From the sequence record PP869411.1: a DNA stretch of 40,312 nucleotides. One strand, written 5' to 3'. Shown piece after piece: positions 6,733 to 29,249 of this stretch (position 1 is its first letter; every line of letters begins with the position of its first letter). Below the pieces are notes generated by a model. It worked only from the letters and a program-made list of their open reading frames with translations, was not told the DNA's origin and made no database searches. The stretch is from Enterobacter phage vB_EclP_26. Both the position numbers and the translations under genes were made by a program.

Positions 6733-6773
6733 AAAAAAAAACCCCTCAAGCACCCGAAGGCACCCAAGGGGTT
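6733..6773 (-). terminator. Tphi-like rho-independent / phage RNAP terminator downstream of capsid
   Basis: The minus-strand RNA AACCCCUUGGGUGCC-UUCG-GGUGCUUGAGGGG followed by U9 gives a 13-bp stem (with G:U pairs) and a UUCG tetraloop. Close to T7 Tphi (AACCCCTTGGGG..CTTGAGGGGTTTTTTG). Confidence 0.8.
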
Positions 6774-6777
6774 TCAA

Positions 6778-8090
6778 TTAGTTTGTGAACGACACGTTGA
6801 ACTCACGGATTTGATTACCGTCATATTCAACCGTTACAAGACCGCTCACAGCAGAGGTGGCCTTGAAGTAGAGACTGTTAGTTCTCCGGGAGTAGCTAAC
6901 ACCATCAGGCGTAGCAACTACAAGCTTGGACCAATCGGTCACATCAGAAAGCTCAGGGAAGTCAACCTTCAAGCTGCTTCCCACGGTAGATTCTAAAGTC
7001 TCCAAGGTCGGACCCTCGGAAGTGAAGGACCTAAAGGTCGTTAACCCGCTGCTGCTGGGCTGAAAACCAGTGCGCCAGCTGCTTCAGGACGCAGACCGCC
7101 GTGACCCATCGCGTACTTACCGACAATCAGGTCGCCCTGAGCATCGACGTCACGGTCACGTTCCAGAGCCAGGTCGCGCAGCTTAACGGTACCAACCGCA
7201 GAGCGGTGACCGAACAGGCCCACAACGTTGTCCAGAGCAACCTTAACATCGCCACCAGCGGTAGCAGGGAAGCCGTGTTTCTGACCAGATGCGATAGAGA
7301 TGCCATCATCACCACGAGTCTCACCAGCGCCACCCTGAGTCAGGTGCGGAACCTCGACCACAGTGAAGCCCATTACGTTACGGATGTTACCAGTCTCTGG
7401 GTCAATCAGTGCCGCGTAGTTAGCAGCGTTAGGCATCAGGGCCGCGAGGATTGCAGAGTAGTTATCCGGTGTGGTGTAGAAGTAACGGTCGGACGCAGGA
7501 ACATAGTTCTTAGTCAGACGCGCACGGGCGATAGTCAGCTGACCGATGATTGCTTCACCCAGCTTAGCCGGAGTGTTCAGGTCTGCCAGTGTACCCACTT
7601 CCAGTACGGACGCGGTGCCCAGACCAGCGATGTTCTCGTTGGACGCAGCAGGCAGGTTACACAGGATCGCCATCTCAGCCAGTACCGCACCATCAGCAGC
7701 GATAGCCAGAGCTTCGCCCAGTTGGTTGGAATACTCGCCAGCCACATCGTAGTGGTTCATGGCATCTTCAATGTCGAAAATCATCACGTCAGCAGTCAGC
7801 AGACCGTCGATGGTGATAACCTTCTCAGTGTGCTTGATGCCCTTACGCTTATCAGACAGGCGCTCACCCGGTGCCAGATACACACCAGAGGTGCGGCCCA
7901 TGACAGGGAACTGAGCGGACTTACCGTTCTGAATGGTGCGTACAATATGCTTGTCAGCGGTCACAGAACGACGAGCGAATGCGGTCAGGACTTCACCAGC
8001 GAAGACCTTGAGGAACAGTGCTAGTGCATCGGTAGCTGACTTGCCTTTGCCTTGGTCGGTACCAATTTTCTGACCCGGAACGTTTGCCAT
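6778..8090 (-). CDS. minor capsid protein 10B, made by programmed -1 frameshift from 10A at GGTTTTC
   Basis: The -1 frame stays open from the slippery heptamer (minus-strand G GTT TTC at 7068..7062) to the stop at 6778. This matches the T7 10A/10B frameshift site G GUU UUC. The track ORF 6778..7005 is the C-terminal part of this extension. Confidence 0.65.
7041..8090 (-). CDS. major capsid protein 10A
   Basis: 349 aa, highly similar to T7 gp10A (LALFLKVF.GEVLTAFAR, HTEKVITIDGLLTADV, NYAALIDPE, HRSAVGTVKLRDLALER, KYAMGHGGLRPEAAGA). Confidence 0.97.
   Translation of the reverse strand: MANVPGQKIGTDQGKGKSATDALALFLKVFAGEVLTAFARRSVTADKHIVRTIQNGKSAQFPVMGRTSGVYLAPGERLSDKRKGIKHTEKVITIDGLLTADVMIFDIEDAMNHYDVAGEYSNQLGEALAIAADGAVLAEMAILCNLPAASNENIAGLGTASVLEVGTLADLNTPAKLGEAIIGQLTIARARLTKNYVPASDRYFYTTPDNYSAILAALMPNAANYAALIDPETGNIRNVMGFTVVEVPHLTQGGAGETRGDDGISIASGQKHGFPATAGGDVKVALDNVVGLFGHRSAVGTVKLRDLALERDRDVDAQGDLIVGKYAMGHGGLRPEAAGALVFSPAAAG
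7062..7068 (-). promoter_or_regulatory. -1 ribosomal frameshift slippery site (G GUU UUC)
   Basis: Heptamer in the 0 frame 22 nt before the 10A stop; the downstream -1 frame is open for about 96 codons. Confidence 0.6.
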
Positions 8091-13843: not shown

Positions 13844-16014
13844 TAGTGACACTCCTTCCACGTTGGTCCTATCTTACCTTCGGTATCAAGGACGCATTTA
13901 AAGTTATAGAACTCACCCACCTTACGCATAGCAAGCTGAGCAATATTGACGACTTCTTCGGCAATCTCCTGAGTACGACACGCTATCTGTAGCTCATCAT
14001 GTACCCAAGCCATGTACGCGAAGTCTCCATCCCAGCCGTGGACATACCCGGCTTCTTCCAGCATACGCTCGGTCTCGACAATCCAGTGCTTACAGACGAC
14101 CGCACCGTCACCTTGAAGTAATGCGTTCAGTGCTGAGTGTGGCGACCGGATGTGAATGCGGCGACCGTCCAGACCTTTGAGCCAGCGACGTTTCCACTTC
14201 ACAATGTTCTCACCGTCGACCCACTTTGAGTCTGAGATGAGAGTATTCTGGACGGCTTCTCTCAGGTCCTTGATGGCTGGGGTACCCTCAATGAATTTCT
14301 TCATCAGGGCTGAACCTTCTTTCTTACCACCACCAACTATCAGTCCAATCTTCGCGGCCCCTGCACCATACAGGAACGCATAGATGAACGTCTTGGCGTT
14401 ATTACGGAAGGCATCATGGTCGTGGCTAGACTTGTCGCGTGGGACGTTAGGTGCTAACCCGGCGTTGACCGCATTGGCCCAATGGATGTCACCTTCGACC
14501 ACGGTCTTCGCATATTCACCACCATCAAACGGAGATGCACGGTTCCCCAGACAGCGGAGTTCAAGACCTGAGGCGTCGACCCCCACTTGAATCCATGGGT
14601 CTGGCTTGCCATTGTTCTTGTTCCACTGAGCACCAAAAGCACTTCGGCAGATTTCACCCCAAGGAGCACCGTTAGCCGGGACCTGAGCCATGTTCGGTGA
14701 ACTATGGGTCGCACGTCCGGTTACAGCACCACAAGGGTTAATCGACCCGTGCATCCTACCGTCAGGACCAACAAGCTTCAACCATGCGTTCTTACCTTCA
14801 GCCGCCTGACCGATACGCTTCTGGACCACCAGATACTCACGTACCAGCTCTACGCAAGCTTGGGCCTCAGGGTCATCCAGCTTAACGTCTTCCAGCGTCT
14901 CGTCGTCACACTTCGGCTTCCCGGTGTCGGTGAACTCTGTAGGCTCCCACCCACGGTCCATCAGAACCTTAGCCAAGTGGTCCCCGCTTCCGGGGTTGAA
15001 CTCGACGTAGGTTATAGGTGTGAACGGTGCGCCCACCATCGTATCACGGGAGTCTATCTCACAAGGCTCAAGACCTAAGCGCTGAGCTTTGTTCTTCGGC
15101 TTCTTGAAGATGGACCCGACCTTCGGATAAACGACTCGTGGGTACTTCGGCAGGTCCACACCAGTGCGTGGGTGCTTGAAGAACTCCTTGCCGCCTTTAG
15201 GCTGGTACCAGCTACCGAAGGTTGACCGGAGTTTATCTAGCAGCTCTGCACGCTTGATTGACAGCTCTCGATATAAGCCTTCGACAATCTCCGAGTTCAT
15301 CGGATAGCCGTTACGCTCCATCTTCGCACAGGTCCACGCTGCGTCATGTTCCAGACGCAATGCGTACACTGCTTCAAGTCCTGCTTCAGGTGACCCGAAG
15401 TAGAAACTGTCGGTGAGGAACTTCTTGAACAGGGCCAGAGTAACCACAACGTCTTGGACGTTATAGTCCAGCATGTCCTGACTCGGGTGTAACCACTCAT
15501 CGCCAGCCACATACGGGATACCTTCAGCCTTGCATCTGGCAATATAATCGGTCTTGTACTCACCCTTCATCTCACCGAGTCGATAACCCCAAGCCTCAAG
15601 AGACTGTCGGCCCATCATCTTCGGTGGCAGACGACCAGCTTTAACGGCCCCAATGTCCGAGAACTTAATGTTCGGGTACATCAGTCGGCCCATTACCAGC
15701 GTGTCTATCATCTTATGTTTCGGGAAGTTGAAACGCTTACCAAAATACTTCCGCTTAAGAATGTCGATTGCCGGGACGTCATAGTTAATCCCGTTGTGGA
15801 AGACCAGAAGTCCATGCGGCGTGGCCGCAATCTCTTCGACCTTCGCTACATACTCCTTGAAGCCACCGACAATACCAACCATCGGCGCTACCCCGTACTT
15901 CAGGGTCTCATTCGACTCGGCGTTAATCAGGACCCCACAGTGGAACTGAGAGACGGTATCCAAGAGACCATCAGTCTCAATATCACTCCCCCAGATATTC
16001 TGTAAGTCAATCAT
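13843..16014 (-). CDS. DNA polymerase, T7 gp5 homolog
   Basis: 723 aa. Exonuclease and polymerase motifs are conserved with T7 DNAP (FHCGV, VFHNG..YDVPA, LEAWGYRLGEMKGEYK, DYNVQDVVVT, NPCGAVTGRATH, AKTFIYAFLYGAG, DGDFAYMAWVHDE). Confidence 0.98.
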   Translation of the reverse strand: MIDLQNIWGSDIETDGLLDTVSQFHCGVLINAESNETLKYGVAPMVGIVGGFKEYVAKVEEIAATPHGLLVFHNGINYDVPAIDILKRKYFGKRFNFPKHKMIDTLVMGRLMYPNIKFSDIGAVKAGRLPPKMMGRQSLEAWGYRLGEMKGEYKTDYIARCKAEGIPYVAGDEWLHPSQDMLDYNVQDVVVTLALFKKFLTDSFYFGSPEAGLEAVYALRLEHDAAWTCAKMERNGYPMNSEIVEGLYRELSIKRAELLDKLRSTFGSWYQPKGGKEFFKHPRTGVDLPKYPRVVYPKVGSIFKKPKNKAQRLGLEPCEIDSRDTMVGAPFTPITYVEFNPGSGDHLAKVLMDRGWEPTEFTDTGKPKCDDETLEDVKLDDPEAQACVELVREYLVVQKRIGQAAEGKNAWLKLVGPDGRMHGSINPCGAVTGRATHSSPNMAQVPANGAPWGEICRSAFGAQWNKNNGKPDPWIQVGVDASGLELRCLGNRASPFDGGEYAKTVVEGDIHWANAVNAGLAPNVPRDKSSHDHDAFRNNAKTFIYAFLYGAGAAKIGLIVGGGKKEGSALMKKFIEGTPAIKDLREAVQNTLISDSKWVDGENIVKWKRRWLKGLDGRRIHIRSPHSALNALLQGDGAVVCKHWIVETERMLEEAGYVHGWDGDFAYMAWVHDELQIACRTQEIAEEVVNIAQLAMRKVGEFYNFKCVLDTEGKIGPTWKECH

Positions 16015-16030
16015 AATGTCTCCTATAGTC

Positions 16031-16072
16031 TAATCATAAAGGCCGCTACAGCATGTAACGACCTTGAGTCTA
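16031..16072 (-). ncRNA. conserved structured RNA element, class I copy B (RNase III-site-like / 5' transcript hairpin)
   Basis: Minus-strand UAGACUCAAGGUCGUUAC-AUGCU-GUAGCGGCCUUUAUGAUUA has an 11-bp stem. The paralogs at 23373..23414 and 33533..33574 preserve the stem through compensatory changes. Confidence 0.6.
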
Positions 16073-16091
16073 TCCTACAGTGATAGCTTAG
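16071..16091 (-). promoter_or_regulatory. phage-RNAP promoter (variant) upstream of DNAP
   Basis: CTAAGCTATCACTGTAGGATA. Confidence 0.65.
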
Positions 16092-16252
16092 TAGTCGGTA
16101 CGCAGGAAGTGATACATGAACTTTCGGTTCGCTCGCTTCCAAGCTACTGACTCGAAGCGCTGCTCGCCCAAGATGCGGGACAGGCAGTCTGCCTCTTCGC
16201 TCCACCACTTGAACATGAATCTGTGGTAGCGAGCCTTAAGTTTCTTAAACAT
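16088..16252 (-). CDS. small basic hypothetical protein (gene 4.x region)
   Basis: 54 aa starting MFKKLKARYHRF, with RBS GAGGAGA; the track ORF extends 15 codons upstream without an RBS. Confidence 0.5.
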   Translation of the reverse strand: MFKKLKARYHRFMFKWWSEEADCLSRILGEQRFESVAWKRANRKFMYHFLRTDY

Positions 16253-16300
16253 TATTTCTCCTCTTCGTGATAACACCAGCACCAAGGGTCGCCACACTTC

Positions 16301-18007
<1,707 letters not shown>

Positions 18008-18055
18008 TCACTCCTTAATCAATAGTGCGAACAAAGGGACAAGACTCGTGGTCTC

Positions 18056-18075
18056 ATCCCTAAGGTGATAGTTTA
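18056..18075 (-). promoter_or_regulatory. degenerate phage-promoter-like sequence upstream of primase
   Basis: CTAAACTATCACCTTAGGGA: TATA at -4..-1 is replaced by CTTA, so function is doubtful. Confidence 0.35.
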
Positions 18076-18285
18076 GCTGAAGAAGCCTTTCAGTTGCTCG
18101 GCCTTGGCCTCCAGACGTTTAGCTTCCCAGCTTGCGTCCTGAGATGCCAGTTGCGCAGCCTGCGACTTCGACGCCAGTTCCTCAGCAAGTTTCGCCTCCA
18201 CGCTGGCGACCTTTCGTTCCAGACGCGCAGCACGAGTATAGCCACGCACGACCAGACGACCCAGAAATTCAATAAACTTAATCAT
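18073..18285 (-). CDS. hypothetical coiled-coil protein
   Basis: 70-aa ORF between amidase and primase; Ala/Lys/Glu-rich heptads. Confidence 0.4.
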   Translation of the reverse strand: MIKFIEFLGRLVVRGYTRAARLERKVASVEAKLAEELASKSQAAQLASQDASWEAKRLEAKAEQLKGFFS

Positions 18286-18298
18286 GTTGTTCTCCTTA

Positions 18299-18757
18299 TT
18301 AGCCTCGGTCGGAAGTGACCAGTTCGTTAGTGTTCAGCCAGCGCTGCAAGTCGAAACTTGGACAGGCTTTAGGGGCCACATCGTGATGGGCCTTGATGTC
18401 TGCCTGTGGGTACAGGGACTTCAGGTCAGCCAGCTTGGTACGCAGGGAGTGCATCTGGGCAGGAGTGAAGTTAGCTTCAAACTTACCCTTGGCGTCGATT
18501 CCACCTACAAGGCAGACGCCTACGGACTTGGAGTTCCAGTCCTTAACGTGAGACCCTACGACATCCACCGGGCGACCTTCTTCAATAGTGCCATCTCGCT
18601 TGATGACGAAGTGGTAACCAACGTCAAGCCAGCCCTGCTGCTTATGCCACATGCGGATAGTGTCTACCCCGATGTCCTGAGATGGTCGGGTCGCTGAGCA
18701 GTGGACGAAGATGGCATCAGTCCGGCTACGTGGTTGGAACTGCACCTTACTTCCCAT
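18299..18757 (-). CDS. N-acetylmuramoyl-L-alanine amidase / T7 lysozyme, gp3.5 homolog
   Basis: 152 aa; AIFVHCSAT.PSQ, GWLDVGYHF.IKRDGT, GVCLVGGID.KGKF.ANFTPAQM, AHH.VAPKACPSFDL and NELVTSDRG are near-identical to T7 gp3.5. Confidence 0.97.
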   Translation of the reverse strand: MGSKVQFQPRSRTDAIFVHCSATRPSQDIGVDTIRMWHKQQGWLDVGYHFVIKRDGTIEEGRPVDVVGSHVKDWNSKSVGVCLVGGIDAKGKFEANFTPAQMHSLRTKLADLKSLYPQADIKAHHDVAPKACPSFDLQRWLNTNELVTSDRG

Positions 18758-18974
18758 TGTACACCACCAGCTCTACGATGACTAGGTTCAGGTGAGACTT
18801 GAAGCGCTCACTCACAGTCGTGTGCATCTGTAGGCGCTTATGGTTGAAGACGTGAGAGTTGCTGATCTTCACGTACACTTCGTCCGGGCGACCATGCACG
18901 ATGAACGCATAGCCCACCGGGATTTTATCAATAGTCAGGCGCTCACGTACTACCTGCACTTCTTTAGAGGTCAT
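18747..18974 (-). CDS. hypothetical small protein between gp3 and gp3.5
   Basis: 75-aa ORF that overlaps both neighbours by a few nt. Confidence 0.4.
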   Translation of the reverse strand: MTSKEVQVVRERLTIDKIPVGYAFIVHGRPDEVYVKISNSHVFNHKRLQMHTTVSERFKSHLNLVIVELVVYNGK

Positions 18975-19423
18975 TTCTTAGCTCCTTTCTTTGGGATGAG
19001 GATGCCAGAAGGCAGACGTACAGTCGCCTCCCGTAGCCACTCAACCGGGATAAATTTGTCGGCATACTTATAGCCGTTCTTTTCGCACCATGCGCCATAC
19101 GTGGTCGGAGACCCTTTGTATAGCTTGGAGCGGGACGAGCTGAACACGAACCGGATGTCTAACTCCGGGTGTTGCTCACGCACCAGCAGATGCTTCTTGC
19201 GGTCTTCGCTGTCGAAGATACCTTTGGTCTCGACAATGATACCGTTAGGCAGGATGAAATCTGGTGTGTACTTGTGGTCGGAAGCCGGAATCACATAGTT
19301 GATATAATGGCTTTCGTACTCTGCCTTGACGCCATTCTGCTCCAGCCACTGCTGGTTCTTAGCCTCAAGTCCTGAGCGGTAGGCACCCACAGAGTGCCCC
19401 CGTTTTGGTGTCCATGCAGCCAC
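18971..19423 (-). CDS. endonuclease I (Holliday-junction resolvase), T7 gp3 homolog
   Basis: 150 aa; YVIPAS.H.YTPDF.LPNGI.VETKG, DRKKHLL.REQHPELDIR.VFSSSR.KLYKGSPT.YG. Confidence 0.96.
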   Translation of the reverse strand: MAAWTPKRGHSVGAYRSGLEAKNQQWLEQNGVKAEYESHYINYVIPASDHKYTPDFILPNGIIVETKGIFDSEDRKKHLLVREQHPELDIRFVFSSSRSKLYKGSPTTYGAWCEKNGYKYADKFIPVEWLREATVRLPSGILIPKKGAKK

Positions 19424-19425
19424 GA

Positions 19426-20124
19426 TTAGAAGTCGTAGTCACCAGCAGTGTCTTCAGTTGAGCCATCAGACCCATCGTCTTGGAAGTCATCTGCATTGAA
19501 GTCGCCATCGGTAGAGGCCTTGTAGCCATCAGACCCGATGTCTTCATCGTCACCCCAGCCACCGTCACCGCCAGTACCATCGCCAGTCCACTCTTTGAGT
19601 TTGACCAGCAGTACGGATTCGAGTTGCAGCTTGACGCTTGCACCAGTCGCAGCGTTCCACTTGAACGGCAGGACCTTAAACTTGACCTTCAGCTCGGAGC
19701 CTGTGCCAATATTCGGGACGTCACGGATGAGTTTAGCATCGGTGTCGTAGAACCGTAATACGATAGGCTCAGACTTGCCGTCTTTCAGGTAAGACGCAAA
19801 GCATTTGAACTTCAGGGTAACTGTGCCGTCACCGTTCTCAATCCACGGCATGTCGCCTTCACGTGGTTCGATAGGCTTCTTGCCACGCTGAACCTGAGGA
19901 GGGTTCTTCTCGTGGTCTGCGAGTGCTTTCGCATACGCATCGTCGTGAATCTTCTGCAAGACATCAATCATCTTGCGGACTTTTGGGTCTGACAGGTTGA
20001 ACGTTAGGTTGACTTTGTGCTCACCACGCTCGTTGAACTTGGTGTCAGCTTTATTCAGCCAGCTGTAAGGCTCGACCAGACCAGCTACTGGAGTGGTGAA
20101 AGTCTTCAGTTGTTCACGGGACAT
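19426..20124 (-). CDS. ssDNA-binding protein, T7 gp2.5 homolog
   Basis: 232 aa; NPP.V.RGKKP, EGDMP, NGDGT.T.KFKC.AS, GASVKLQLESV.LV and an acidic C-terminal tail ending in F. Confidence 0.95.
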   Translation of the reverse strand: MSREQLKTFTTPVAGLVEPYSWLNKADTKFNERGEHKVNLTFNLSDPKVRKMIDVLQKIHDDAYAKALADHEKNPPQVQRGKKPIEPREGDMPWIENGDGTVTLKFKCFASYLKDGKSEPIVLRFYDTDAKLIRDVPNIGTGSELKVKFKVLPFKWNAATGASVKLQLESVLLVKLKEWTGDGTGGDGGWGDDEDIGSDGYKASTDGDFNADDFQDDGSDGSTEDTAGDYDF

Positions 20125-20156
20125 ATTGTTTCTCCTTTAGAGTTGAAATTAAGTTG

Positions 20157-20176
20157 TTCCTACAGTGATAGTTTAG
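20157..20176 (-). promoter_or_regulatory. phage-RNAP promoter (phi2.5 equivalent, TGTAGG variant)
   Basis: CTAAACTATCACTGTAGGAAC; overlaps the gp2 stop. Confidence 0.7.
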
Positions 20177-20412
20177 TCGTGCTTCTCAGGTCGGATGCGG
20201 CCTACCACAAAGCCTGCATCTTCATATTCCTGAGACTTTAGAGTAGCCTCTTCCAGAGACTTAGCGTATACCGGGACCTCGAAGGACTGAACTCGACCCT
20301 CAAGCTCCACGATATATTTCTTCTCTACAGGCTCGTACATGCAGCGGTGGGCGCAGGAGTGATTCTCCATGCCTACATCCTTTGCATACTGACAGCCATT
20401 CTCACAGGTCAT
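20173..20412 (-). CDS. host RNAP inhibitor gp2 homolog with Cys-rich N-terminal extension
   Basis: The C-terminal 48 aa ([45 protein letters not shown]) aligns to T7 Gp2. The N-terminal 30 aa carry CxxxC...CxxxC. RBS GGAGAGGA. Confidence 0.8.
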
Positions 20413-20490
20413 AGTCCTCTCCCTTTCCAGAGGTTGTACATTTCGAGGTAGTTGGTGTCACCAGTCTTCTCGAACATCATCTCACACCAG

Positions 20491-20985
20491 CTACTTGGAG
20501 TCATTACCACCAGCCTTACTCTGAGCTACCAGACGCGCACCGAAGAACTCGACTTTCTCAGCATCGTACAATCCATCATCTTTAGCGCCAGCCTTACGCA
20601 GACCTAAAGTACGCTGAGCGGCCCGACGCCAGATGGCCTTGAACGCGTTGCCCTCCGCAAAGTTCATACCCAGAGCTTCGATGATGTCATTACACTCAGC
20701 GATGTACTCAGGTCGACCGGGAGTCGTTGTCTTGGTGATAGACACTTGGTAGTAGTCTGCTGACCCACCAGTGTACGTAGGTTCGGTCTTGGCTGCCACT
20801 GCTTTTCGCAGATTGCCAAAGGACACTGCTGTTTCATCACTATTGAAAGGACACTCACCGCATGCAATTCCATGACAGTTGATTCCGCCGCCACAATAAT
20901 CATGCGTATCAGGCTTATCAGGGTTCTGCTCTACCAACATTACCGCAATCTTCCAGTCCTTTGAGCCTTCAGCTAAGTTAGTCAT
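20491..20985 (-). CDS. gp1.7-like protein (nucleotide kinase family / DUF3310-like C-terminus)
   Basis: 164 aa with a Cys cluster (C.GGGINCHGIACGEC) like T7 gp1.7 and a conserved C-terminal region; synteny. Confidence 0.55.
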   Translation of the reverse strand: MTNLAEGSKDWKIAVMLVEQNPDKPDTHDYCGGGINCHGIACGECPFNSDETAVSFGNLRKAVAAKTEPTYTGGSADYYQVSITKTTTPGRPEYIAECNDIIEALGMNFAEGNAFKAIWRRAAQRTLGLRKAGAKDDGLYDAEKVEFFGARLVAQSKAGGNDSK

Positions 20986-21238
20986 TGACCACCTCCTTCA
21001 CGAACTCAACGAACAGACGAACACGAGGCCACTTGGTGTAGACCACAGGCACGCTGGTTTCAATCTTCTGGCGGGCCTCTTCAGCTTTGCCCGGAGTAAT
21101 CAGAGCGTAGACTGTAGGTGCCAGCTTAACGGCCTTCCCGAAGAAGCCAACCTTCTCGTCACGCTTAATGCAGGCGAACGGGTTGTTGGACAGGTGGAAG
21201 GTCTTTGAATAACGGTTGAACATTAAGTTCTTAGACAT
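20978..21238 (-). CDS. hypothetical protein (gene 1.5/1.6 region)
   Basis: 86-aa ORF directly downstream of a phage promoter, with RBS AAGGAGAAA. Confidence 0.5.
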   Translation of the reverse strand: MSKNLMFNRYSKTFHLSNNPFACIKRDEKVGFFGKAVKLAPTVYALITPGKAEEARQKIETSVPVVYTKWPRVRLFVEFVKEVVND

Positions 21239-21273
21239 AAGGTTTCTCCTTAAAGTTGAGGGACTCGACGTTG

Positions 21274-21293
21274 GTCCTACAGTGATAGTTTAG
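21274..21293 (-). promoter_or_regulatory. phage-RNAP promoter (TGTAGG variant)
   Basis: CTAAACTATCACTGTAGGAC. Confidence 0.7.
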
Positions 21294-21388
21294 TCGTCTA
21301 GACACTCGCCTACCAGCCACGTGAGGCCGTAGACCAGCAGCCATGACAGTATGGCAACTGCTGTGATAGAGAGCATAGGCATAAGCAT
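21290..21388 (-). CDS. possible 32-aa hydrophobic peptide
   Basis: MLMPMLSITAVAILSWLLVYGLTWLVGECLDD, preceded by GGAGGA. A promoter is embedded in its 3' end. It is below the track ORF length cut-off. Confidence 0.3.
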   Translation of the reverse strand: MLMPMLSITAVAILSWLLVYGLTWLVGECLDD

Positions 21389-21442
21389 TGGTCCTCCAGA
21401 ATGCGAAAGACCCAGTAGTCCGCGAAGACCACTGGGTTGACG

Positions 21443-21904
21443 TTATAATGAATCTCTTAAGGCTACTGCCTCGGCTATGGTATCGAACGTACCGTATGAC
21501 TTACGCTTTATCCGCAGTTGCCAGCGACCAGTCCTTGGCTCAAAGTTAACATACTTCTCACCAGACTTGCAGTGGCTACGGACGGCGACGTTTGTCAGGT
21601 TCACTGCCTGAGTTACACACCTTAGGTTCTCAATTCGGTTATCAGAAGGGTCTCTGTTTATATGGTCAATAACCATTCCTTCCGGTATCGGACCGTGAGT
21701 TAGTTCCCAGACTACCCGGTGTGCAAGGAGCTGACCTTTGGTTGTGTTTATAATCCAGTAGCCATCCTTGCGTCGATAGCCTAAGTGTTTACCCTTCAGG
21801 TTGGCGACTCCCGAAGGAGCCGTCCGGTCAACCTTAAATCTTGACTGTAGGATTGTCCTCAGTCCCTCGCCACTGGTCGAATGACGGATGTCGCAAACTT
21901 CCAT
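21443..21904 (-). mobile_element. HNH homing endonuclease (HNH_3-type) inserted after the ligase gene
   Basis: 153 aa; GYWIINTTKGQLLAHRVVWELTHGPIPEGMVIDHINRDPSDNRIENLR. It overlaps the ligase 3' end by 71 nt in another frame. Confidence 0.85.
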
Positions 21905-22892
21905 CTGGTGTCTCCTCCATGTAGGTAATCTGACAGGCCCACCCTTTGTAGTAATCTGGGTCTGACTTTACGTTCTCTGTGAACTCGGACATAAGGGCGC
22001 GACTAATGTTAGTTGCGGAGACCTCCATCCCGTTCTCAAGCATAACGTCGAAACCAATTACTAGACCTTCGTTTGCGAGACCTTCGGTCCCCCATACTGG
22101 CCTAACAACGTGACCGTCTGCCTCTTCGCTTGGCTTCATTTTCCACATGCCAGACTTATTGCCTCGCTTGTATTTACCAAGTGGGTCCTTGACTACCAGA
22201 CCCTCATGTCCTTCCAGACGCTTCTCTTCGTACAGGGAGTTGAGCGACTCAAGGTCATAGACCGTGTGTGACTCAGACAGAACCCAGTCGATTTCCGGGA
22301 AGTATTTCTGGAGGAGAGGGACGATAGATTCGGCCTTCAGTCGGGTGACGCTGTGGATAGGACCTTCAGCTTTCGGGTCGAGGATGACGTTAAGGTCAAT
22401 GACCCCGTAGACAATGACTTGCAGCTTGTTAGGTGCTAGCTTGAATAATGTCTTAGTTCCCCACAGCTTCTTGTCCCAGTCAAGCAGCGCTCTGGTGTCG
22501 AACATTTTGTTAGCGTCCTTGAGATATTTGGTACGGATGAGACCTGAAGACGTGTTGAAGTCTACACCCTTGACCATGACCTCGCCGTCAATCATCAGGC
22601 CAGAGACTTCATGTCCTGCCTGCTTCAGGAACCACCGCCAGTCGCTAGCCTTCTGCTGTTCACCGGGAGACTGGTGTATGCCTTCGGGTACTGACATCCA
22701 GCTCAGCGCTGGCAGTTCTTTAGACTCACGGCTCAACCACTGGGTCTCACCCGTTGGGAAGACCGGAAGGTTCAGGCGCACGCCGTCATACTTCACCTCA
22801 GCTTCCAGCGACCCGGCTGCTTCCAGTGCTTTCTTAACGCCGGACTCAGAGTAGTCGACTGCGCGGTGTGGTGCGGTTTTGATAGTTGTCAT
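21834..22892 (-). CDS. ATP-dependent DNA ligase, T7 gp1.3 homolog
   Basis: KYDGVR adenylation motif. DGE.MVKGVDFNTSSGLIRTK, EGHEGLVVKDP, WKMKP, ISRALM.EFTE and WACQI.YMEETPDGSLRHPSF match the T7 ligase. The start is taken at an internal ATG with RBS GGAGA. Confidence 0.95.
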   Translation of the reverse strand: MTTIKTAPHRAVDYSESGVKKALEAAGSLEAEVKYDGVRLNLPVFPTGETQWLSRESKELPALSWMSVPEGIHQSPGEQQKASDWRWFLKQAGHEVSGLMIDGEVMVKGVDFNTSSGLIRTKYLKDANKMFDTRALLDWDKKLWGTKTLFKLAPNKLQVIVYGVIDLNVILDPKAEGPIHSVTRLKAESIVPLLQKYFPEIDWVLSESHTVYDLESLNSLYEEKRLEGHEGLVVKDPLGKYKRGNKSGMWKMKPSEEADGHVVRPVWGTEGLANEGLVIGFDVMLENGMEVSATNISRALMSEFTENVKSDPDYYKGWACQITYMEETPDGSLRHPSFDQWRGTEDNPTVKI

Positions 22893-22897
22893 TCTGG

Positions 22898-23158
22898 TTA
22901 TCTCCACAGTTCAAATTGTTTAAGTGCGTTGTAAGCTGGCCCGATGGCATCGGCGTACTCTGTTGGACCCATCGAGTCGTTAAACTCAAGTCTCGCTATC
23001 AGGTCTCCTCGCTCATACCCTCCCTTAGGGCTGAATATAGGAGGCATTCTGAAGGTCATCCTCTCGACCTTAATCTTACGACTCAGGTCCTCGTACCAGT
23101 CCTGTTCTACCACAAGTCCGAGGCTCTTGGCAAACTCCTTAAGCTCATAATGGTTCAT
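22898..23158 (-). CDS. gp1.2-position hypothetical protein
   Basis: 86 aa; the call is positional (between 1.1 and the ligase). Confidence 0.45.
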   Translation of the reverse strand: MNHYELKEFAKSLGLVVEQDWYEDLSRKIKVERMTFRMPPIFSPKGGYERGDLIARLEFNDSMGPTEYADAIGPAYNALKQFELWR

Positions 23159-23161
23159 ACC

Positions 23162-23341
23162 TTACGCTCCTACGAAATACTTCTCTTGGTTGACCATTGA
23201 GTCTTTACCTTCAGCGTTGCGGAAAGCACCCTTTACGCCACCACCGCGCTTGGTCTTATTCAGCTTGCGACCCTTAGGCATGTAACCTTCGGTCTGCTGA
23301 CGTTCACGGATGCGCTCGAAGTTAATGGTGTTCTGATACAT
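23162..23341 (-). CDS. gp1.1 homolog
   Basis: 59-aa basic protein containing GRKLNKTKR, as in T7 gp1.1. Not in the ORF track (<60 aa). Confidence 0.7.
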   Translation of the reverse strand: MYQNTINFERIRERQQTEGYMPKGRKLNKTKRGGGVKGAFRNAEGKDSMVNQEKYFVGA

Positions 23342-23372
23342 GGTTAAATCTCCAGTAGTTTTGAGTTAGGGT

Positions 23373-23414
23373 TAATCATGAAGGCCACGACTTTGAGTCA
23401 TGACCTTTAGTCTA
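23373..23414 (-). ncRNA. conserved structured RNA element, class I copy C (R1.1-like position)
   Basis: UAGACUAAAGGUCAUGAC-UCAAA-GUCGUGGCCUUCAUGAUUA; an 11-bp stem with covariation relative to copies A and B; lies immediately downstream of a phage promoter. Confidence 0.6.
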
Positions 23415-23434
23415 ATCCTATAGTGATAGTTTAG
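23415..23434 (-). promoter_or_regulatory. phage-RNAP promoter (phi1.1 equivalent)
   Basis: CTAAACTATCACTATAGGAT. Confidence 0.75.
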
Positions 23435-23913
23435 ATGGGCCGGATTCCTCTGCGCCAAGCGCGGGCCACCAGCTTAGCGTCACGTTCAGCAGCCGCATCC
23501 TTCCCGGTAAGCTCCACCATCTCGAAGTCGTACTGAATGCGTCCATCTATGTCAGACTTTCGGTAGACGAAATCCTTACGGGACCCGTCAGTATGCAGCT
23601 GGTGGATTGTCAGGTTTCTGTCGTCGTCGTCCACGGTGAACCACTTCACGTCCTTGCCGCATGGTCCCGGCCCGGTCTTAAAGACTGTGGGCTGGAACAG
23701 TCCGTCAAACAGCGCCTTGAACTTGATGCCGACCAGACGCTCACCTTTCGTTGGTGCCTCCTTGCGTCGTTGGACTTCAAGCATCCGTTCACCCACCGCC
23801 AGCGCTTCTTTAAGCTTGCCTATCTCGTTACTCTTGAGGGTACTCAGCTCATGGCTGTTCTTCAGGTGGACTTCAAGTTCTGCGATGCGTGCTTTCAGTT
23901 TACGGTTAAACAT
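23431..23913 (-). CDS. hypothetical protein (gene 1.05 region)
   Basis: 160-aa ORF with a coiled-coil N-terminus and RBS GAGG. Confidence 0.5.
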   Translation of the reverse strand: MFNRKLKARIAELEVHLKNSHELSTLKSNEIGKLKEALAVGERMLEVQRRKEAPTKGERLVGIKFKALFDGLFQPTVFKTGPGPCGKDVKWFTVDDDDRNLTIHQLHTDGSRKDFVYRKSDIDGRIQYDFEMVELTGKDAAAERDAKLVARAWRRGIRPI

Positions 23914-23990
23914 GGGTTAGCCTCTTCTGCGTTGGATTAATGTGAATACTGCAAGTGCTAGGAGCCAGACTCCCAGCCACTGTAGGTCTG

Positions 23991-24191
23991 TCATTTGGTT
24001 ACCGCCTCGGCTAGGGCCTGTTCGTGGGACTTCTCGACCTGCTGTACAAGCCACTTAAAGGAGACGTTAAGCTGTTTGGACATCTCGGTTGGGATGACCG
24101 TGGTCTTCACCAGACCCTTGCCGTTGTGCTCGGTCACGGTCACGATTTGAGTGCCGCCTTTAATACCAGTCTGCTTGTGTGCAAATTTCAT
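23991..24191 (-). CDS. hypothetical small protein downstream of RNAP
   Basis: 66 aa starting MKFAHKQ, with a strong RBS AAGGAGG; the track ORF begins at an upstream TTG. Confidence 0.55.
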   Translation of the reverse strand: MKFAHKQTGIKGGTQIVTVTEHNGKGLVKTTVIPTEMSKQLNVSFKWLVQQVEKSHEQALAEAVTK

Positions 24192-24204
24192 AGTTAGTGC
24201 CTCC

Positions 24205-26886
24205 TTAGGCGAATGCAAAGTCTGAAGACAGGATGTCTTCGATATTCAGTTTACCGCGTGGTGGCAGTGGTGGCAACTTCTCGCGCTGAGACTCATGGAG
24301 CTGGTCCTCAAACTGCTCGTAGAAGTCTTGCAGCACATCGTTGTCACGGTAAGTCTCGACCATCGTCTCACGCACACCCTTGAAGAGTGACTCAGCGTCT
24401 GCCGGGATGGTCCCGAAGCTGTCGTGAATGACCGCGAAGGACATTACGCCATACTTGCGGTGGGTGTGGACTACAGTCTTCCGCAGGTGGCTGCCATCCT
24501 GTGAGTGGACGAAGTTAGGGCTGATACCCGACTCCTGCTTGTGCTTGTCCAGCTCCTTGCTTGACCCTTTGTTGACTGTGGGTTGCAGGTTGAACGTTCC
24601 AAGGAACAGCAGGTTGAGACGTGTGGTATCACGCTTGCGGTATTCCTGCCAGACTGGGAACCCATCGGGTGTGACCCAGTGTACCGGGAGGCAGGGCTTC
24701 AGCACTTCTTTAGTCTTCTTGTCCTTGACTTCAGCAGCCAGCAGTTTCGCTGCGCCCTGTAGCCACTTCATCGCGTCTACCGCAGCAACTACGGTCACAC
24801 TAACCGCATCCCAAATCATCTTAGCCATGAAGCGAGACGCTTGGCTTGGGTCTGTGAACATAGCCCCTTTGCCGTTGTCGATGGCTGGCATCACGGTGTC
24901 CTCGAACACTTGGTCTGCGAACCCATACTCTTTCGACCCGTAGGCCAGAGTCATGACCGAGCGTTTAGTGACCGAGCGCGACATACCGTATTGCAGCCAC
25001 TGACGGGCCAGCTCACGGGTCCCAAGGACCAGACGCTCTGTAATTTCGCCTGTCTTCTTGTCCTCGAAGGTCTTCATCTCGTTGTCGCTACCGTTGACCA
25101 GCAGTTCCTTGAGTTGCTCCTCCACCCGGTCTGACACAATGCGGTAGATGTCTTGGACCTTACCGCTTGGCGTCAGGTTGACCGCATGTCCGCCAACGTG
25201 GTCCCGAAGCATAGCACTGAAGTGTTGAATCCCAGAGCAGGACCCATCGAATGCGATAGGCAGTGAGCAGGAGTAGCTCAGACCGTGGTGCATTACCCCA
25301 GCATACTCGAAGCAGAACGCGAGGAAGCAGAACGGCGAGTCTAACTGGCCCCACCAGTCAATGCTGTCCATCGGACTCTTGGCAGCTGCTAGGATGTTGT
25401 CGTGGTTGTCTTCCACCCACTTGATGCGCTCCTCAAAGGTGACCTTATCCACACCTGCGCAGTTCGCACCGTGCACCTTCAGCCATTTGAAACCGTCAGC
25501 ACCGATAGGCTTGCCAACTGCCAGAGTCAGGAGACCCTTCTGCATGTCGTTTCCTTGCGGGTTGAACATCGGGACCGCATACACTCGACCACGCCAGTCC
25601 ATATTGTACGGGAACCAGATGGCCTTAAACTGTGAGAACTTATTGGCCTGACTCACGATGAAGCTCAATGACAAACGGCGGGACTGTCGGGCCTTCTCTC
25701 GACGGTAGATACCTGCTGCCGCTTTCTTCCACGCTTTCAGTTCCTCCTCAGTCTCCCCTGTGTAATCCTCAGGTTTCATCGGGTCCATCTGCGGGATGTC
25801 TGCGATAGGTGTGTTGTTGAGCTTCTCGACCATGTTCACCACGTCCAAGACCTTCTTGTTCACCTTCCACGGTGTCTGCTGGATGATGTTGACCGCTTCG
25901 TACACCTCCGGCATGTACACGTCTTCATAACGAGCGACCGCAGCCTTTGACCCTAAGCGAATCAATGGGAGTGGTCTGCGACCTTTCGCCCAGTATCCTC
26001 CACCTACCACGCCATTCCACGGCTTAGGCGGGACGACACATGGTTGATACACCGGGGCGATACCTGCCAGTGAGAACCCACGCTGAGCCATCTTCTTGAC
26101 CCAGAAGTCTGACAGGTGGACCATCTCAACGTCTGCCGCAGCGTTGCCTGCACCGTATCGCTTCAGCTCTACCAGCTGTGAGGACTGGATGACCAGCTCC
26201 AGCATCTTGATGCCAACGTGTACCGCTTCAGTCGGACCCCAAGTGCCCCACGCATCAGCCAGCTGCCCCTGCTCAAGCATGGACGCTTCTACTGCCTGCA
26301 TGTAGGCTTTCTTATAGGCCTGACCAGCGCGTTTCTTCAGGTTCTCCGCAATGGTCTTCTTGAAGTGTTCCTGTTCCTGCTCACGGATGCGACCGAAGCG
26401 TATTTCATCTTCAATCGTGCGGCCTATTGCTGAGGCCATTGGCGTAATCGGTACGCCCTCAGGCTTGACCAGCTTCGAGAGGATGACTTTCAGTATGATG
26501 ACCGCAGCCGCCTCAGGTGATACTTTAAGTGAACGGTCTTTAACGGCCTTCTCTTCTGTGCTCAGCATGGTAAACGCCACGCTCGGGCGGGAGGTCGATG
26601 CCTTTCCGTCTGGCCCCTCGTGCCACTCACGAATCGCTTTCGCTATGGTCGGGACCAGCGTTTGCATCAGTGGCTTAGCAACCTGATTGTCTGCCAGTTC
26701 CCCGCGCTCAGTCTGACGCTCAAGGTTCTTAATGAAACGTCGCTCACCTTCAGTGTATGCCTCATGCTCAAGCTGAAGCTGTTTGACTGCGAGGTCCTGA
26801 CCGTAATGGTCAGCCAGTACATTGAACGGCTCAATCGCATTCGATACGTCAGAGAAGTCATGCTTTTCAATCGAGATGACGCTCAT
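24205..26886 (-). CDS. single-subunit DNA-directed RNA polymerase, T7 gp1 homolog
   Basis: 893 aa, highly similar to T7 RNAP across all motifs. The specificity-loop region reads TVNKGSSKELDKHKQESG versus T7 TINTNKDSEIDAHKQESG. The start is taken at an internal ATG (MSVISIEKHDFSD). Confidence 0.98.
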   Translation of the reverse strand: MSVISIEKHDFSDVSNAIEPFNVLADHYGQDLAVKQLQLEHEAYTEGERRFIKNLERQTERGELADNQVAKPLMQTLVPTIAKAIREWHEGPDGKASTSRPSVAFTMLSTEEKAVKDRSLKVSPEAAAVIILKVILSKLVKPEGVPITPMASAIGRTIEDEIRFGRIREQEQEHFKKTIAENLKKRAGQAYKKAYMQAVEASMLEQGQLADAWGTWGPTEAVHVGIKMLELVIQSSQLVELKRYGAGNAAADVEMVHLSDFWVKKMAQRGFSLAGIAPVYQPCVVPPKPWNGVVGGGYWAKGRRPLPLIRLGSKAAVARYEDVYMPEVYEAVNIIQQTPWKVNKKVLDVVNMVEKLNNTPIADIPQMDPMKPEDYTGETEEELKAWKKAAAGIYRREKARQSRRLSLSFIVSQANKFSQFKAIWFPYNMDWRGRVYAVPMFNPQGNDMQKGLLTLAVGKPIGADGFKWLKVHGANCAGVDKVTFEERIKWVEDNHDNILAAAKSPMDSIDWWGQLDSPFCFLAFCFEYAGVMHHGLSYSCSLPIAFDGSCSGIQHFSAMLRDHVGGHAVNLTPSGKVQDIYRIVSDRVEEQLKELLVNGSDNEMKTFEDKKTGEITERLVLGTRELARQWLQYGMSRSVTKRSVMTLAYGSKEYGFADQVFEDTVMPAIDNGKGAMFTDPSQASRFMAKMIWDAVSVTVVAAVDAMKWLQGAAKLLAAEVKDKKTKEVLKPCLPVHWVTPDGFPVWQEYRKRDTTRLNLLFLGTFNLQPTVNKGSSKELDKHKQESGISPNFVHSQDGSHLRKTVVHTHRKYGVMSFAVIHDSFGTIPADAESLFKGVRETMVETYRDNDVLQDFYEQFEDQLHESQREKLPPLPPRGKLNIEDILSSDFAFA

Positions 26887-26963
26887 ACTTAAAGTCCTTA
26901 TAACTGTTGTCTTATCACTAAAGTCTTTCACTTCAGTCCTGACTTATAGTCTTTCGACCTTGA

Positions 26964-26983
26964 GTCCTTTAGTGATAGTTTAG
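26964..26983 (-). promoter_or_regulatory. divergent phage-promoter-like sequence upstream of the RNAP gene
   Basis: CTAAACTATCACTAAAGGAC, followed by an R1-like structured region (GACUCAAGGUC..GACUGAAG). Confidence 0.35.
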
Positions 26984-26989
26984 TCCAAA

Positions 26990-27202
26990 CTACTTGCATA
27001 TCAGCGGGTTAGCGTGCAGATGGCTGAAGTCACCTTTGGTCGTCCAGCGCATAGCTTTCAACTCGGTACATGCCTTCAGTCTGGACTCCAAGATAGCAGC
27101 CATCTCGTTCAGTGCCACCTTGTCTCCGGTCTTATAGGCCAGCATAAAGCGGGACATAATGTTGTTAAAGTGGTCTTGCTTAGCGCGTTGTGATTTAGTC
27201 AT
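26990..27202 (-). CDS. hypothetical early protein
   Basis: 70-aa ORF whose start overlaps the upstream gene by 8 nt. Confidence 0.45.
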   Translation of the reverse strand: MTKSQRAKQDHFNNIMSRFMLAYKTGDKVALNEMAAILESRLKACTELKAMRWTTKGDFSHLHANPLICK

Positions 27203-27395
27203 TACAGTTTGCTCCTAAGGTTGCGATATCAAAGACGTTTGCGAGGTTGCGCATAAAGCGTCCGTTTGGTTGTCTTACAGTCCAGCGTCCCAGTGATACA
27301 TACTGGAAGCGGTAGACTTTACGTGCCTTCACGATGTCTTTCGTGATGACTGCGAGTATTAACCCGTAGCCGATGACCAGAAGTAGCCAGCCCAT
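27195..27395 (-). CDS. hypothetical early membrane protein
   Basis: 66 aa with an N-terminal transmembrane helix (WLLLVIGYGLILAVI); its start overlaps the upstream stop (TAACTATG). Confidence 0.45.
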   Translation of the reverse strand: MGWLLLVIGYGLILAVITKDIVKARKVYRFQYVSLGRWTVRQPNGRFMRNLANVFDIATLGANCND

Positions 27396-27397
27396 AG

Positions 27398-27559
27398 TTA
27401 CCCCGCCAGTCCGCAGAGAATCAGGAGACCGCGCACGATGCCTACAGGTGACACAATGATGTCGACTGCTAGCCAGCCCCAGTGACCAGCGTTGCCATCA
27501 GTCGCTACAGCAGTGACCCAAAGTGCGATGATTACGATGTAGGTTAACAGTGCTTTCAT
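27398..27559 (-). CDS. hypothetical small membrane protein
   Basis: 53 aa (MKALLTYIVIIALWVTAVATDGNAGHWGWLAVDIIVSPVGIVRGLLILCGLAG) with RBS AGGAG; not in the ORF track (<60 aa). Confidence 0.4.
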   Translation of the reverse strand: MKALLTYIVIIALWVTAVATDGNAGHWGWLAVDIIVSPVGIVRGLLILCGLAG

Positions 27560-27625
27560 GGTAATGCTCCTATATGTTGTGAGTAATAATCTTTGAGACC
27601 ACTATATGTAGTGGCCTCTCGCCTA

Positions 27626-28360
27626 TCACTCGGCTATTGCATTCAGCTTGCCTTGCATCTCGTCTTGATGGTCTGCCTGAGTCCAAGACACCGGGTCCGT
27701 GATTATTAAGCGCCCGTTATTGTCTACCATCACGTTAGCGCGATGAGTGTCGAATGAGGCCAGACCGTAGAAGAACGTGTGAATCTTACGTGCAGTCTTA
27801 GCCAGCTCCTTGATGTACTGAGTCTCGACGTGTGCGAACTCAGCTCGCGCCTCGTTGCCAAGCCACCAAGTCAGTGCAGCGTCTGGCATCTCGCAATGGT
27901 CTATCACTGAGTTGACTACGCGCCACGACACGTTTAAGACTCGCTGCTCGTAGGTCTCACCATCCCGGCAGTAGTCACCGCCGATGTCATTCAGTGAGCG
28001 GTACTTATCCATAGCCACCATGTAGGCCCTGCTGAAGCGCTTGACCAGATGTATGACCGGAAGTCCTGCCATGCCCTCATTCTCTCGGCAGAAGGCCGCA
28101 TACGCAGCGCCTGAGTCATCCTTCTTAAAGCCCACCTTGATAGCGTAGCCCGGCAGGTCCTCATGTTCAAAGGCAGCGGCGAAATGTCCTAAGCCTAACA
28201 GCTTGTAACCGTGCTCTTTAGCCAGTATCTCAAAAGCTCCCCAGCGTGGCTGACCTGCTATCCCGGCGCTTGAGTCCTCAATCTTATAGCACTCCTCGTA
28301 GATGATAGCGTGAAGCTGAGACATCAGGTTATTCATGATTACTTTATCGTGTGCATTCAT
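27626..28360 (-). CDS. serine/threonine protein kinase, T7 gp0.7 kinase-domain homolog (short form)
   Basis: 244 aa; G.GHFAAA, IKVGFKKDDSGAAYAAFCR, ASFD.H and ITDPVS match the T7 gp0.7 N-terminal kinase domain. The C-terminal host-shutoff region of T7 (359 aa) is absent. Confidence 0.85.
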   Translation of the reverse strand: MNAHDKVIMNNLMSQLHAIIYEECYKIEDSSAGIAGQPRWGAFEILAKEHGYKLLGLGHFAAAFEHEDLPGYAIKVGFKKDDSGAAYAAFCRENEGMAGLPVIHLVKRFSRAYMVAMDKYRSLNDIGGDYCRDGETYEQRVLNVSWRVVNSVIDHCEMPDAALTWWLGNEARAEFAHVETQYIKELAKTARKIHTFFYGLASFDTHRANVMVDNNGRLIITDPVSWTQADHQDEMQGKLNAIAE

Positions 28361-28381
28361 CGTGTTGTTTCCTTCTTGTGG

Positions 28382-28411
28382 TTAAGTGACAATCAGTCAG
28401 GCCCCTCAGTC
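28382..28411 (-). promoter_or_regulatory. conserved early-region box, class II copy (R0.5-like position, upstream of kinase)
   Basis: The 26-nt motif GACUGARGGSSCUGACUGAUWGUCACU is shared with 29221..29249. Confidence 0.45.
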
Positions 28412-28428
28412 AAAGGACCTGTAGTCTA

Positions 28429-28749
28429 TCACTCTGAGACCTGCTCTAATACCTTCAGACGCTGTGCTAATACCCACGCACCACCCTGAGATTCTGGCCT
28501 GTCATAGGTCGTTATATCCTCCACCTCGACCTTAAACCATGCCCGACGCTCCCCAGACTTCAGGTCCAGCTTAAGATGTGGAGCGTTCTGCTCAAAGGTG
28601 CAATGCCAGCCCGGACGATATGCAAACCCTTTGGTCGGATGACTCTCTGCCTCGTACCATTCCCCGACCTCAATGACCGCCTTACGGTTGATGAACAGTG
28701 CTCCCAGTGTTCCATCCTTGCGGATTCTGAAGATTTTATATGCAATCAT
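28429..28749 (-). CDS. hypothetical early protein between SAM lyase and kinase
   Basis: 106 aa starting MIAYKIFRIRKDG, with RBS GGGAGGTGGTG 2 nt after the SAM lyase stop; no recognisable T7 counterpart. Confidence 0.6.
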   Translation of the reverse strand: MIAYKIFRIRKDGTLGALFINRKAVIEVGEWYEAESHPTKGFAYRPGWHCTFEQNAPHLKLDLKSGERRAWFKVEVEDITTYDRPESQGGAWVLAQRLKVLEQVSE

Positions 28750-28750
28750 C

Positions 28751-29203: not shown

Positions 29204-29220
29204 GATGTGTATCCTTTAAG

Positions 29221-29249
29221 TTAGTGACTATCAGTCAGGGCCTTCAGTC
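29221..29249 (-). promoter_or_regulatory. conserved early-region box, class II copy (R0.3-like position, upstream of SAM lyase)
   Basis: Contains the palindrome TGACTGATAGTCA; a possible stem GACUA..CAGGG / CCCUG..UAGUC surrounds a large internal structure. Confidence 0.45.

Follow-up and report, generated by a model that had tools for sequence, protein, structure and literature searches.

The 40,312-nt stretch of DNA from Enterobacter phage vB_EclP_26 (PP869411.1; hereafter the window) contains six RNA hairpins that are, at a probability of roughly 90% judged from their sequence, RNase III processing signals of the T7 group: three close copies of one another (sites A, B and C) and three divergent relatives in the early region (sites D, E and F). 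Their structure, covariation and strand specificity, their homology and synteny with the sites of T7 and T3, and the presence of a gp0.7-like kinase gene in the same genome are demonstrated here; cleavage, the positions of the cuts and the effects on mRNA stability and translation are predicted by analogy with T7. Genuine and well conserved as the hairpins are, they belong to the textbook picture of T7-group phages and imply no new biology. Their value lies mainly in annotation, in that the six sites predict mRNA boundaries and where the messages for gene 1.1, gene 5 and HNH/18.5 begin.

The genome is that of a K1F-like (Kayfunavirus-type) T7-group phage, with ~82-87% identity over ~80% of a 9-kb test segment; its relatives infect Enterobacteriaceae, and the phage is new only at about the species level. 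The genes lie on the minus strand in T7-like order, comprising 0.3 (SAM lyase), a gp0.7-like kinase, RNA polymerase, 1.05, 1.1 and ligase, followed by the 2.5 single-strand-binding protein, 5, holin 17.5, small terminase 18, HNH, Rz 18.5 and large terminase 19. The window also holds 12 phage promoters with the consensus CTAAACTATCACTRTAGGR, every one of them on the minus strand.

The original prediction had described a conserved 42-nt element at 16031-16072, 23373-23414 and 33533-33574. All three copies were found there, read on the minus (sense) strand as UAGACUCAAGGUCGUUACAUGCUGUAGCGGCCUUUAUGAUUA (site A, 16072..16031), UAGACUAAAGGUCAUGACUCAAAGUCGUGGCCUUCAUGAUUA (site B, 23414..23373) and UAGACUCAAGGUCAUUACUAUAUGUAGUGGCCUUUAUGAUUA (site C, 33574..33533). 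The pattern of letters that they share, AAGGTC-N15-GGCCTTNATGATTA, matches the window three times against 0.00 expected from 100 shuffles, which excludes chance as the source of these copies. An 11-bp stem is present in all three, with the pairs A-U, A-U, G-C, G-C, U-G and C-G held constant and the rest variable, and the loops are, as had been stated, unlike each other (AUGCU in A, UCAAA in B and UAUAU in C). The double changes reported at stem positions 7 and 9 are both real, but they had been assigned to the wrong copies: position 7 reads G-C/A-U/A-U, and position 9 U-A/G-C/U-A, in A/B/C respectively.

What had been missed is that each 42-mer forms just the core of a larger hairpin, 52-58 nt in size. 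In sites A-C this hairpin comprises an 8-9-bp lower stem, a 4x5-nt internal loop (ACUC/UAUGA in A and C, ACUA/CAUGA in B), the 11-bp upper stem and the variable loop. Folding of the three copies, one of the checks that had been proposed, gave -19.6 to -23.6 kcal/mol for 62-nt sense-strand RNAs (z = -3.8 to -3.95). Antisense RNAs of the same sites give weak folds (z = -1.0 to -2.0), since on that strand two conserved U-G pairs turn into C.A mismatches; the conserved U-G pairs thus make the fold specific to the sense RNA. For sites A-E, the minimum-free-energy and centroid folds all give the plan of lower stem, 4x5 loop and upper stem. The sites did not stand out when minimum free energy was scanned along both strands in sliding 64-nt segments, as GC-rich coding segments dominated the output. 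The same scan brought up a GC-rich 17-bp stem followed by UUUUU at 6737-6800 (-), which has the form of a T-phi-like terminator.

The likeness to RNase III sites that had been proposed goes beyond shape, as the copies are sequence homologues of the T7 sites. RNase III features are absent from the annotation of both T7 GenBank V01146 and the T7 RefSeq record, whereas the T3 RefSeq record (NC_003298) lists ten stem-loops annotated as "RNase III recognition site"; T3 was therefore taken as the annotated reference. The window core aligns column for column with T7 R0.5, R1.1, R4.7 and R18.5 and with six of the ten T3 sites (R0.3, R0.5, R1.1, R1.3, R4.7 and R18.5), with 15 invariant columns, and the four T7 sites share with those of the window the common core ACUCAAGGUC...GGCCUUYAUGAUU. 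T7 R1.1 (ACUCAAGGUCAUUCGCAAGAGUGGCCUUUAUGAUUG), whose RNA the Nicholson laboratory has studied, is identical to site C over the first 9 bp of the upper stem, and has the same ACUC/UAUGA internal loop, first 6-9 upper-stem base pairs and putative U-G/U-A distal box as sites A and C. It differs in the end of the hairpin, where the 11 bp and 5-nt loop of the window are replaced by 10 bp and a GCAA tetraloop. Both stems of site C are matched almost exactly by T3 R0.5 (AGUGUUAAACUCAAGGUCAUG...GUGGCCUUUAUGAUUAACAUU). The two-stem plan and the gene neighborhoods in T7 are as in the window, and synteny agrees with the positions originally proposed, such that B corresponds to R1.1, A to R4.7 and C to R18.5.

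The Kayfunavirus type member K1F has five of the six sites in the same positions: 5' of gene 0.3, at the place of site E, 5' of gene 1.1, 5' of gene 5 and after gene 18. At the 1.1 site (L004:5568-5624, orthologous to B) and the 18.5 site (L004:36448-36504, orthologous to C) K1F has exactly the upper stem and loop of the window, whereas its gene 5 site has an inner stem and loop unlike those of site A. These hairpins are unannotated in the K1F RefSeq record, which likewise has no annotated gp0.7 kinase, and a literature search, which did not take in the original K1F genome report, returned nothing specific on the RNase III sites of K1F or T7-like phages. Other bacterial RNase III substrates, such as pre-rRNA stems, the lambda N leader, sib and the rnc leader, are also helices of about two turns with proximal and distal boxes (PMC1540722, PMC3867540), but they bear no sequence homology to those of the window, and in many of them both strands are cleaved. 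The signals of the T7 group form a homologous family of their own, in which the internal loop enforces a single cut.

Covariation was quantified in two alignments. In the first, of 16 sequences from the window, K1F, T7 and T3, 95% of cells are paired and double changes appear at 9 pairs, a result matched by none of 500 shuffles; controls in which the pairing partner was slid gave 26-50% pairing. This alignment was the basis of covariance model R1, which, with filters off, found two window sites beyond A-C (D and E) and recovered sites on which it had not been trained, namely T7 R0.3, R1, R1.3 and R6.5 and T3 R1 and R6.5. IMG/VR was then scanned with a pattern and the matches were searched with the model, which yielded 73 hits, 59 of them distinct and mostly in contigs of ~40 kb; about half of the pattern matches were chance occurrences, lying in unrelated contigs and lacking a covariance-model hit. 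Across the 59 distinct homologues, in an alignment (A2) fitted to the model structure and so favoring it, pairing holds in 96.1% of cells and double changes occur at 14 of 17 pairs, which none of 500 shuffles reaches, and sliding the partner brings pairing down to 25-50%. The family of T7 RNase III signals thus spans many T7-like contigs of ~40 kb with strong covariation.

A second model, R2, was built from the IMG/VR hits alone, without window sequences. Run on the window, it returns six sites, every one on the sense strand, with no other match at E<=10. Over the two models together, A-C score 47-70 bits and D-F 30-45 bits, and the matches across the four genomes are all on the sense strand except one at E = 0.45. 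The covariance-model search that had been suggested for T7-like genomes recovers T7, T3, K1F and IMG/VR homologues with the structure conserved. Rfam (15) gave no family at gathering scores and nothing at these loci at E<=1, and the T7-group signals appear not to be represented in that release; a covariance model that recovers unseen T7 and T3 sites could fill this gap.

Site A (16023..16080, -), the equivalent of R4.7 in T7 and T3, lies directly 5' of gene 5 (DNA polymerase, ATG at 16014). It consists of an outer helix (CUGUAG/CUAUAG), a 2x2 mismatch, a lower stem (UAG/UUA) and an upper stem in which 16065..16055 pairs with 16049..16039; it folds at -23.6 kcal/mol (z = -3.94) and scores 54.2 bits (E 6e-11) with R1 and 47.4 bits (E 3e-9) with R2. 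Site B (23367..23420, -), the R1.1 equivalent, lies between gene 1.05 (23913..23431) and gene 1.1 (23341..23162), which were identified by Pfam Phage_T3_1_05 and Phage_1_1. Its 11-bp upper stem stands on the lower stem UAGG.UUAG/UUAA.CCUA, with a fold of -20.2 kcal/mol (z = -3.79) and scores of 61.5 bits (R1) and 56.8 bits (R2). Site C (33528..33579, -), the R18.5 equivalent, starts where gene 18 (33842..33579) ends, at the stop codon, and combines an 8-bp lower stem (AGUGUUAG/UUAACAUU) with the 11-bp upper stem. It is the top covariance-model match in the window (R1 70.2 bits, E 6e-15; R2 64.4 bits), with a fold of -19.6 kcal/mol (z = -3.95). As had been noted, this third copy separates gene 18 (small terminase) from the HNH gene, after which comes the Rz gene 18.5.

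The placement of the other two copies at the 5' end of phage-promoter transcripts also holds, as promoters with the consensus CTAAACTATCACTRTAGGA lie directly 5' of sites A and B. The promoter of site A (16070..16092, -; -17 to +6) has its +1 at G16075 and that of site B (23413..23435, -) at G23418, start points set by analogy with T7 and T3 promoters, and each overlaps the 5' strand of the lower stem of its site. The arrangement at site B is that of T3, in which gene 1.05, phi1.1 overlapping R1.1, and gene 1.1 follow one another and the promoter at 5984-6006 overlaps the stem-loop at 6003-6053. T3 R4.7 likewise lies directly 5' of gene 5, as site A does, but T3 has no promoter before it. T7 has promoter phi4.7 after R4.7, whereas in the window the promoter lies ahead of site A and contributes to its lower stem. 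The 3' strand of that lower stem, GACUAUAGGAGA at 16021-16033 (-), whose location is equivalent to that of T7 phi4.7, resembles the 3' part of the T7-type promoter, CACTATAGGGAGA, and also holds the gene 5 Shine-Dalgarno sequence; it is kept in two related contigs and not in K1F, and the promoter-like sequence may be a relic or a coincidence.

Sites D, E and F, absent from the original prediction, are more divergent than A-C and all lie in the early region. Site D (28384..28434, -; R1 match 28433..28380), which is R0.5-like, lies just 5' of the gp0.7-like kinase gene and comprises a 9-bp lower stem, 4x5 internal loop, 10-bp upper stem and 4-nt loop around the core ACUACAGGUC..GGCCUGACUGAUU (R1 39.5 bits, E 3e-7; R2 44.3 bits, E 2e-8; -23.4 kcal/mol, z = -3.89). 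Its orthologue in a related contig, L051:1634-1687, keeps the stem via compensatory changes. Site E (27581..27631, -; R1 match 27630..27577) overlaps the end of the kinase gene, the position of R1 in T7 (after gene 0.7), with a 9-bp lower stem, 4x5 loop, 10-bp upper stem and core GCGAGAGGCC..GGUCUCAAAGAUU (R1 30.0 bits, E 7e-5; R2 44.5 bits, E 2e-8; -24.8 kcal/mol, z = -6.39); compensatory changes are seen in its orthologues in the same related contig (L051:2442-2495) and in K1F (L004:1768-1823). Site F (29222..29303, -; model match 29302..29218) is R0.3-like and lies 5' of gene 0.3 (SAM lyase, 29203..28751). In its flanks, ACUACAGG..CCUGACUGAUAGUCACU, it agrees with the K1F counterpart 5' of gene 0.3 (K1F 1032-1087), which is of normal size, whereas the upper stem of site F carries an insertion that makes it ~30 nt longer, and branched. 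It is the weakest member of the set (R2 29.7 bits, E 9e-5; -31.6 kcal/mol, z = -2.75).

All six sites are intercistronic and on the coding strand, at positions matching R0.3, R0.5, R1, R1.1, R4.7 and R18.5 of T3 and T7. T7 has ten sites against the six detectable in the window, where the R2 search found none resembling R1.3, R3.8, R6.5 or R13. Just 5' of the RNA polymerase gene lies a promoter variant, CTATCACTAAAGGA (26978..26965, -), followed by the half-motif ACUCAAGGUC, and its core UAUCACUAAAG recurs inverted ~45 nt downstream as CUUUAGUGAUA. Read-through RNA from this region (26905-26985) could fold into a long hairpin that contains the promoter, in the manner of T3 R6.5 and R13; the region has no covariance-model match and folds marginally (z = -1.7). 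At the start of the early region, sigma-70-like promoters occur 5' of the gene 0.3 hairpin, one as TTGACA-18-TAGTAT at 29411-29440 (-) and a second with TTGACA ~140 nt upstream (~29550-29585, -), and these fit host-polymerase early promoters of the T7 A1-A3 type.

The kinase gene flanked by sites D and E (27626..28360, -) is a 244-aa ORF assigned to the gp0.7-type kinase family by its match to phrog_15752 ("protein kinase ... positively regulates RNaseIII", E 1e-108); no Pfam family matches it. Its T7 homologue phosphorylates RNase III and stimulates it. The T7 kinase raises the kcat of RNase III (PMC4858673), and by analogy the window kinase would act on the enzyme in the same way.

Processing at these sites would begin with polycistronic transcripts of the phage RNA polymerase, or of the host polymerase in the early region, that read through the hairpins. 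Co-transcriptional folding would give about two helical turns, with an 8-9-bp lower and a 10-11-bp upper stem separated by the asymmetric 4x5-nt loop. A dimer of host RNase III would then bind the helix and cut one phosphodiester on the 3' side of the loop, at YAU^GA by homology with T7, a single cut being expected because the internal loop distorts the target site. The T7 cleavage coordinates that Dunn and Studier reportedly gave in 1983 (1468, 5887, 13892 and 36856) all sit on the U of the conserved AU|G. On that basis the cuts in the window are predicted after U16036, U23378 and U33538, that is at U16036/G16035 (A), U23378/G23377 (B) and U33538/G33537 (C). The upstream mRNA would retain the stable upper hairpin at its 3' end and so be protected from 3'-to-5' exonucleases, and the downstream mRNAs (gene 5, gene 1.1 and HNH/18.5) would begin with a 5'-monophosphate G and a short Shine-Dalgarno leader, predicted to run 21 nt to the start codon of gene 5, 36 nt to that of gene 1.1 and 22 nt to that of the HNH gene. 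Internal loops confine E. coli RNase III to a single phosphodiester, and the 3' hairpins left behind shield RNA from 3'-to-5' decay (PMC1540722, PMC3867540); T7 R1.1 itself is cut at a single bond (PMC4858673). T7 grows without RNase III (PMC6938266, PMC4858673), which suggests that the fitness value of such sites is modest.

The distal box that suits E. coli RNase III best is UA/UG. Each distal-box substitution in a minimal R1.1 substrate reduced reactivity at least 5-fold (PMC1540722). In the putative proximal-box region, sites A and C read as R1.1 does (C.U, A-U, A-U, G-C), and their putative distal box is U-G/U-A, whereas site B has A.C beside the upper stem in place of C.U and U-G/G-C in the distal box, with G-C for U-A; the placement of the boxes on base pairs 8-9 is our own count from the cleavage site, set against PMC1540722. 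These differences give some room to the idea that the hairpins are bound by RNase III or another protein and left uncut, as stabilizing elements at 5' or 3' ends or as translational operators. An R1.1 variant with G-C at proximal-box position 4 binds the enzyme and resists cleavage (PMC1540722), and site B departs from R1.1 at that position as well as in the distal box. Site A, whose promoter-started RNA is predicted to keep the upper stem only, may carry an uncut hairpin at the 5' end, and the 3' strand of its lower stem overlaps the gene 5 Shine-Dalgarno sequence. Against this, sites A and C share the internal loop and first 6-9 upper-stem base pairs with T7 R1.1, which is cleaved efficiently; the T7 orthologues are cut both in vivo and in vitro (PMC4858673, PMC6938266); and the conserved 4x5 internal loop is one that directs single-strand cleavage (PMC1540722, PMC3867540). 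Natural T7 R4.7 and R0.5 also vary at positions where site B differs from R1.1. In view of the homology, binding without cutting is unlikely.

Readings that dispense with RNase III are less probable again. Stable hairpins between genes invite comparison with terminators or pause signals for the phage or host polymerase, yet the stems are followed by UAUGAUUA and by no U-run, and A and B lie a few bases past a promoter, where termination makes no sense. A terminator scan of 15000..34000 called none of A, B or C, the typical T-phi-like terminator of this genome lies elsewhere, after the major capsid gene (6800..6737, -), and we consider this explanation very improbable. An intrinsic or T7 class I terminator would combine a GC-rich hairpin with a run of U directly after it, a run that these sites lack. 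An element that acts in DNA, as a cruciform, replication origin or recombination site, might be imagined because the primary replication origin of T7 lies near phi1.1A and phi1.1B and a T3 origin is annotated near gene 1.05. But 2 of the 11 upper-stem pairs are the conserved U-G pairs, which are mismatched in DNA and become C.A in the weak fold of the other strand, and the model hits in four genomes keep to the sense strand but for the one marginal match; this strand asymmetry argues against a DNA-level element, to which we give hardly any credence. Just as little can be said for the copies being remnants or target sites of a mobile insertion, an HNH homing endonuclease, that left repeated DNA without RNA function. 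This was raised as the outcome that would overturn the original prediction, and it draws on the HNH gene adjoining hairpin C and on the other homing endonuclease genes found at the same spot in relatives. It is contradicted by K1F and most relatives, which have hairpin C between genes 18 and 18.5 without an HNH gene, by sites A and B, which have no HNH neighbor, by T7 and T3, which share the hairpins and likewise lack HNH beside them, and by the compensatory changes and G-U pairs, which show selection on the RNA fold. RNase III processing is the reading that we prefer for all six hairpins.

The HNH endonuclease gene itself (33111..33515, -; Pfam HNH_3, E 2e-18) starts 13 nt past the end of hairpin C and lies between that R18.5-type hairpin and the Rz gene 18.5, which in T7 is the next gene after the site. 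In most relatives, K1F included, the hairpin directly precedes gene 18.5; their homology to the window crosses hairpin C and breaks off at ~33530, slightly short of the hairpin's 3' end, at the start of the HNH insert. A few relatives (TM1, BUCT788) carry a different "homing endonuclease" at the same spot. The HNH gene is a later insertion, and the junction just after the R18.5 hairpin looks like a recurrent landing place of homing endonuclease genes.

The promoter overlap at site A is the only route to something new. Here the gene 5 promoter forms the 5' strand of the outer lower stem, so that the outer helix lies upstream of +1, and with the 2x2 mismatch in the lower stem the RNA started at G16075 is predicted by folding to form the upper stem only, 10 nt from its 5'-triphosphate end. 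RNA from the site B promoter is predicted to retain a 6-bp lower stem, and T3 phi1.1 transcripts include the entire annotated stem-loop, which those from the site A promoter do not. The overlap may, rather doubtfully, constitute a promoter-coupled processing switch, in which read-through RNA would be cut and promoter-started gene 5 RNA would be left uncut and stabilized at its 5' end. Two RNA populations of the DNA polymerase gene would then be handled differently, by a switch that T7 and T3 lack at this site. A weaker variant holds that the near-invariant core, conserved beyond the needs of pairing, might be read by a second sequence-specific factor.

Stable hairpins of other kinds were also seen in the window. 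Two lie near the presumed genome end or terminal-repeat region, 3' of gene 19.5, at 30269-30332 (-) and 30356-30391 (-); one of them has a perfect 11-bp stem, CUAAGGUCAGU/ACUGACCUUAG, and the other a short GUGAUAA/UUAUCAU stem with a very weak model match (E = 5). The promoter at 8212 immediately precedes a stable 5' hairpin, GGGAGACCA...UGGUUUCCC (8141-8212, -), which resembles the phi10 leader of T7.
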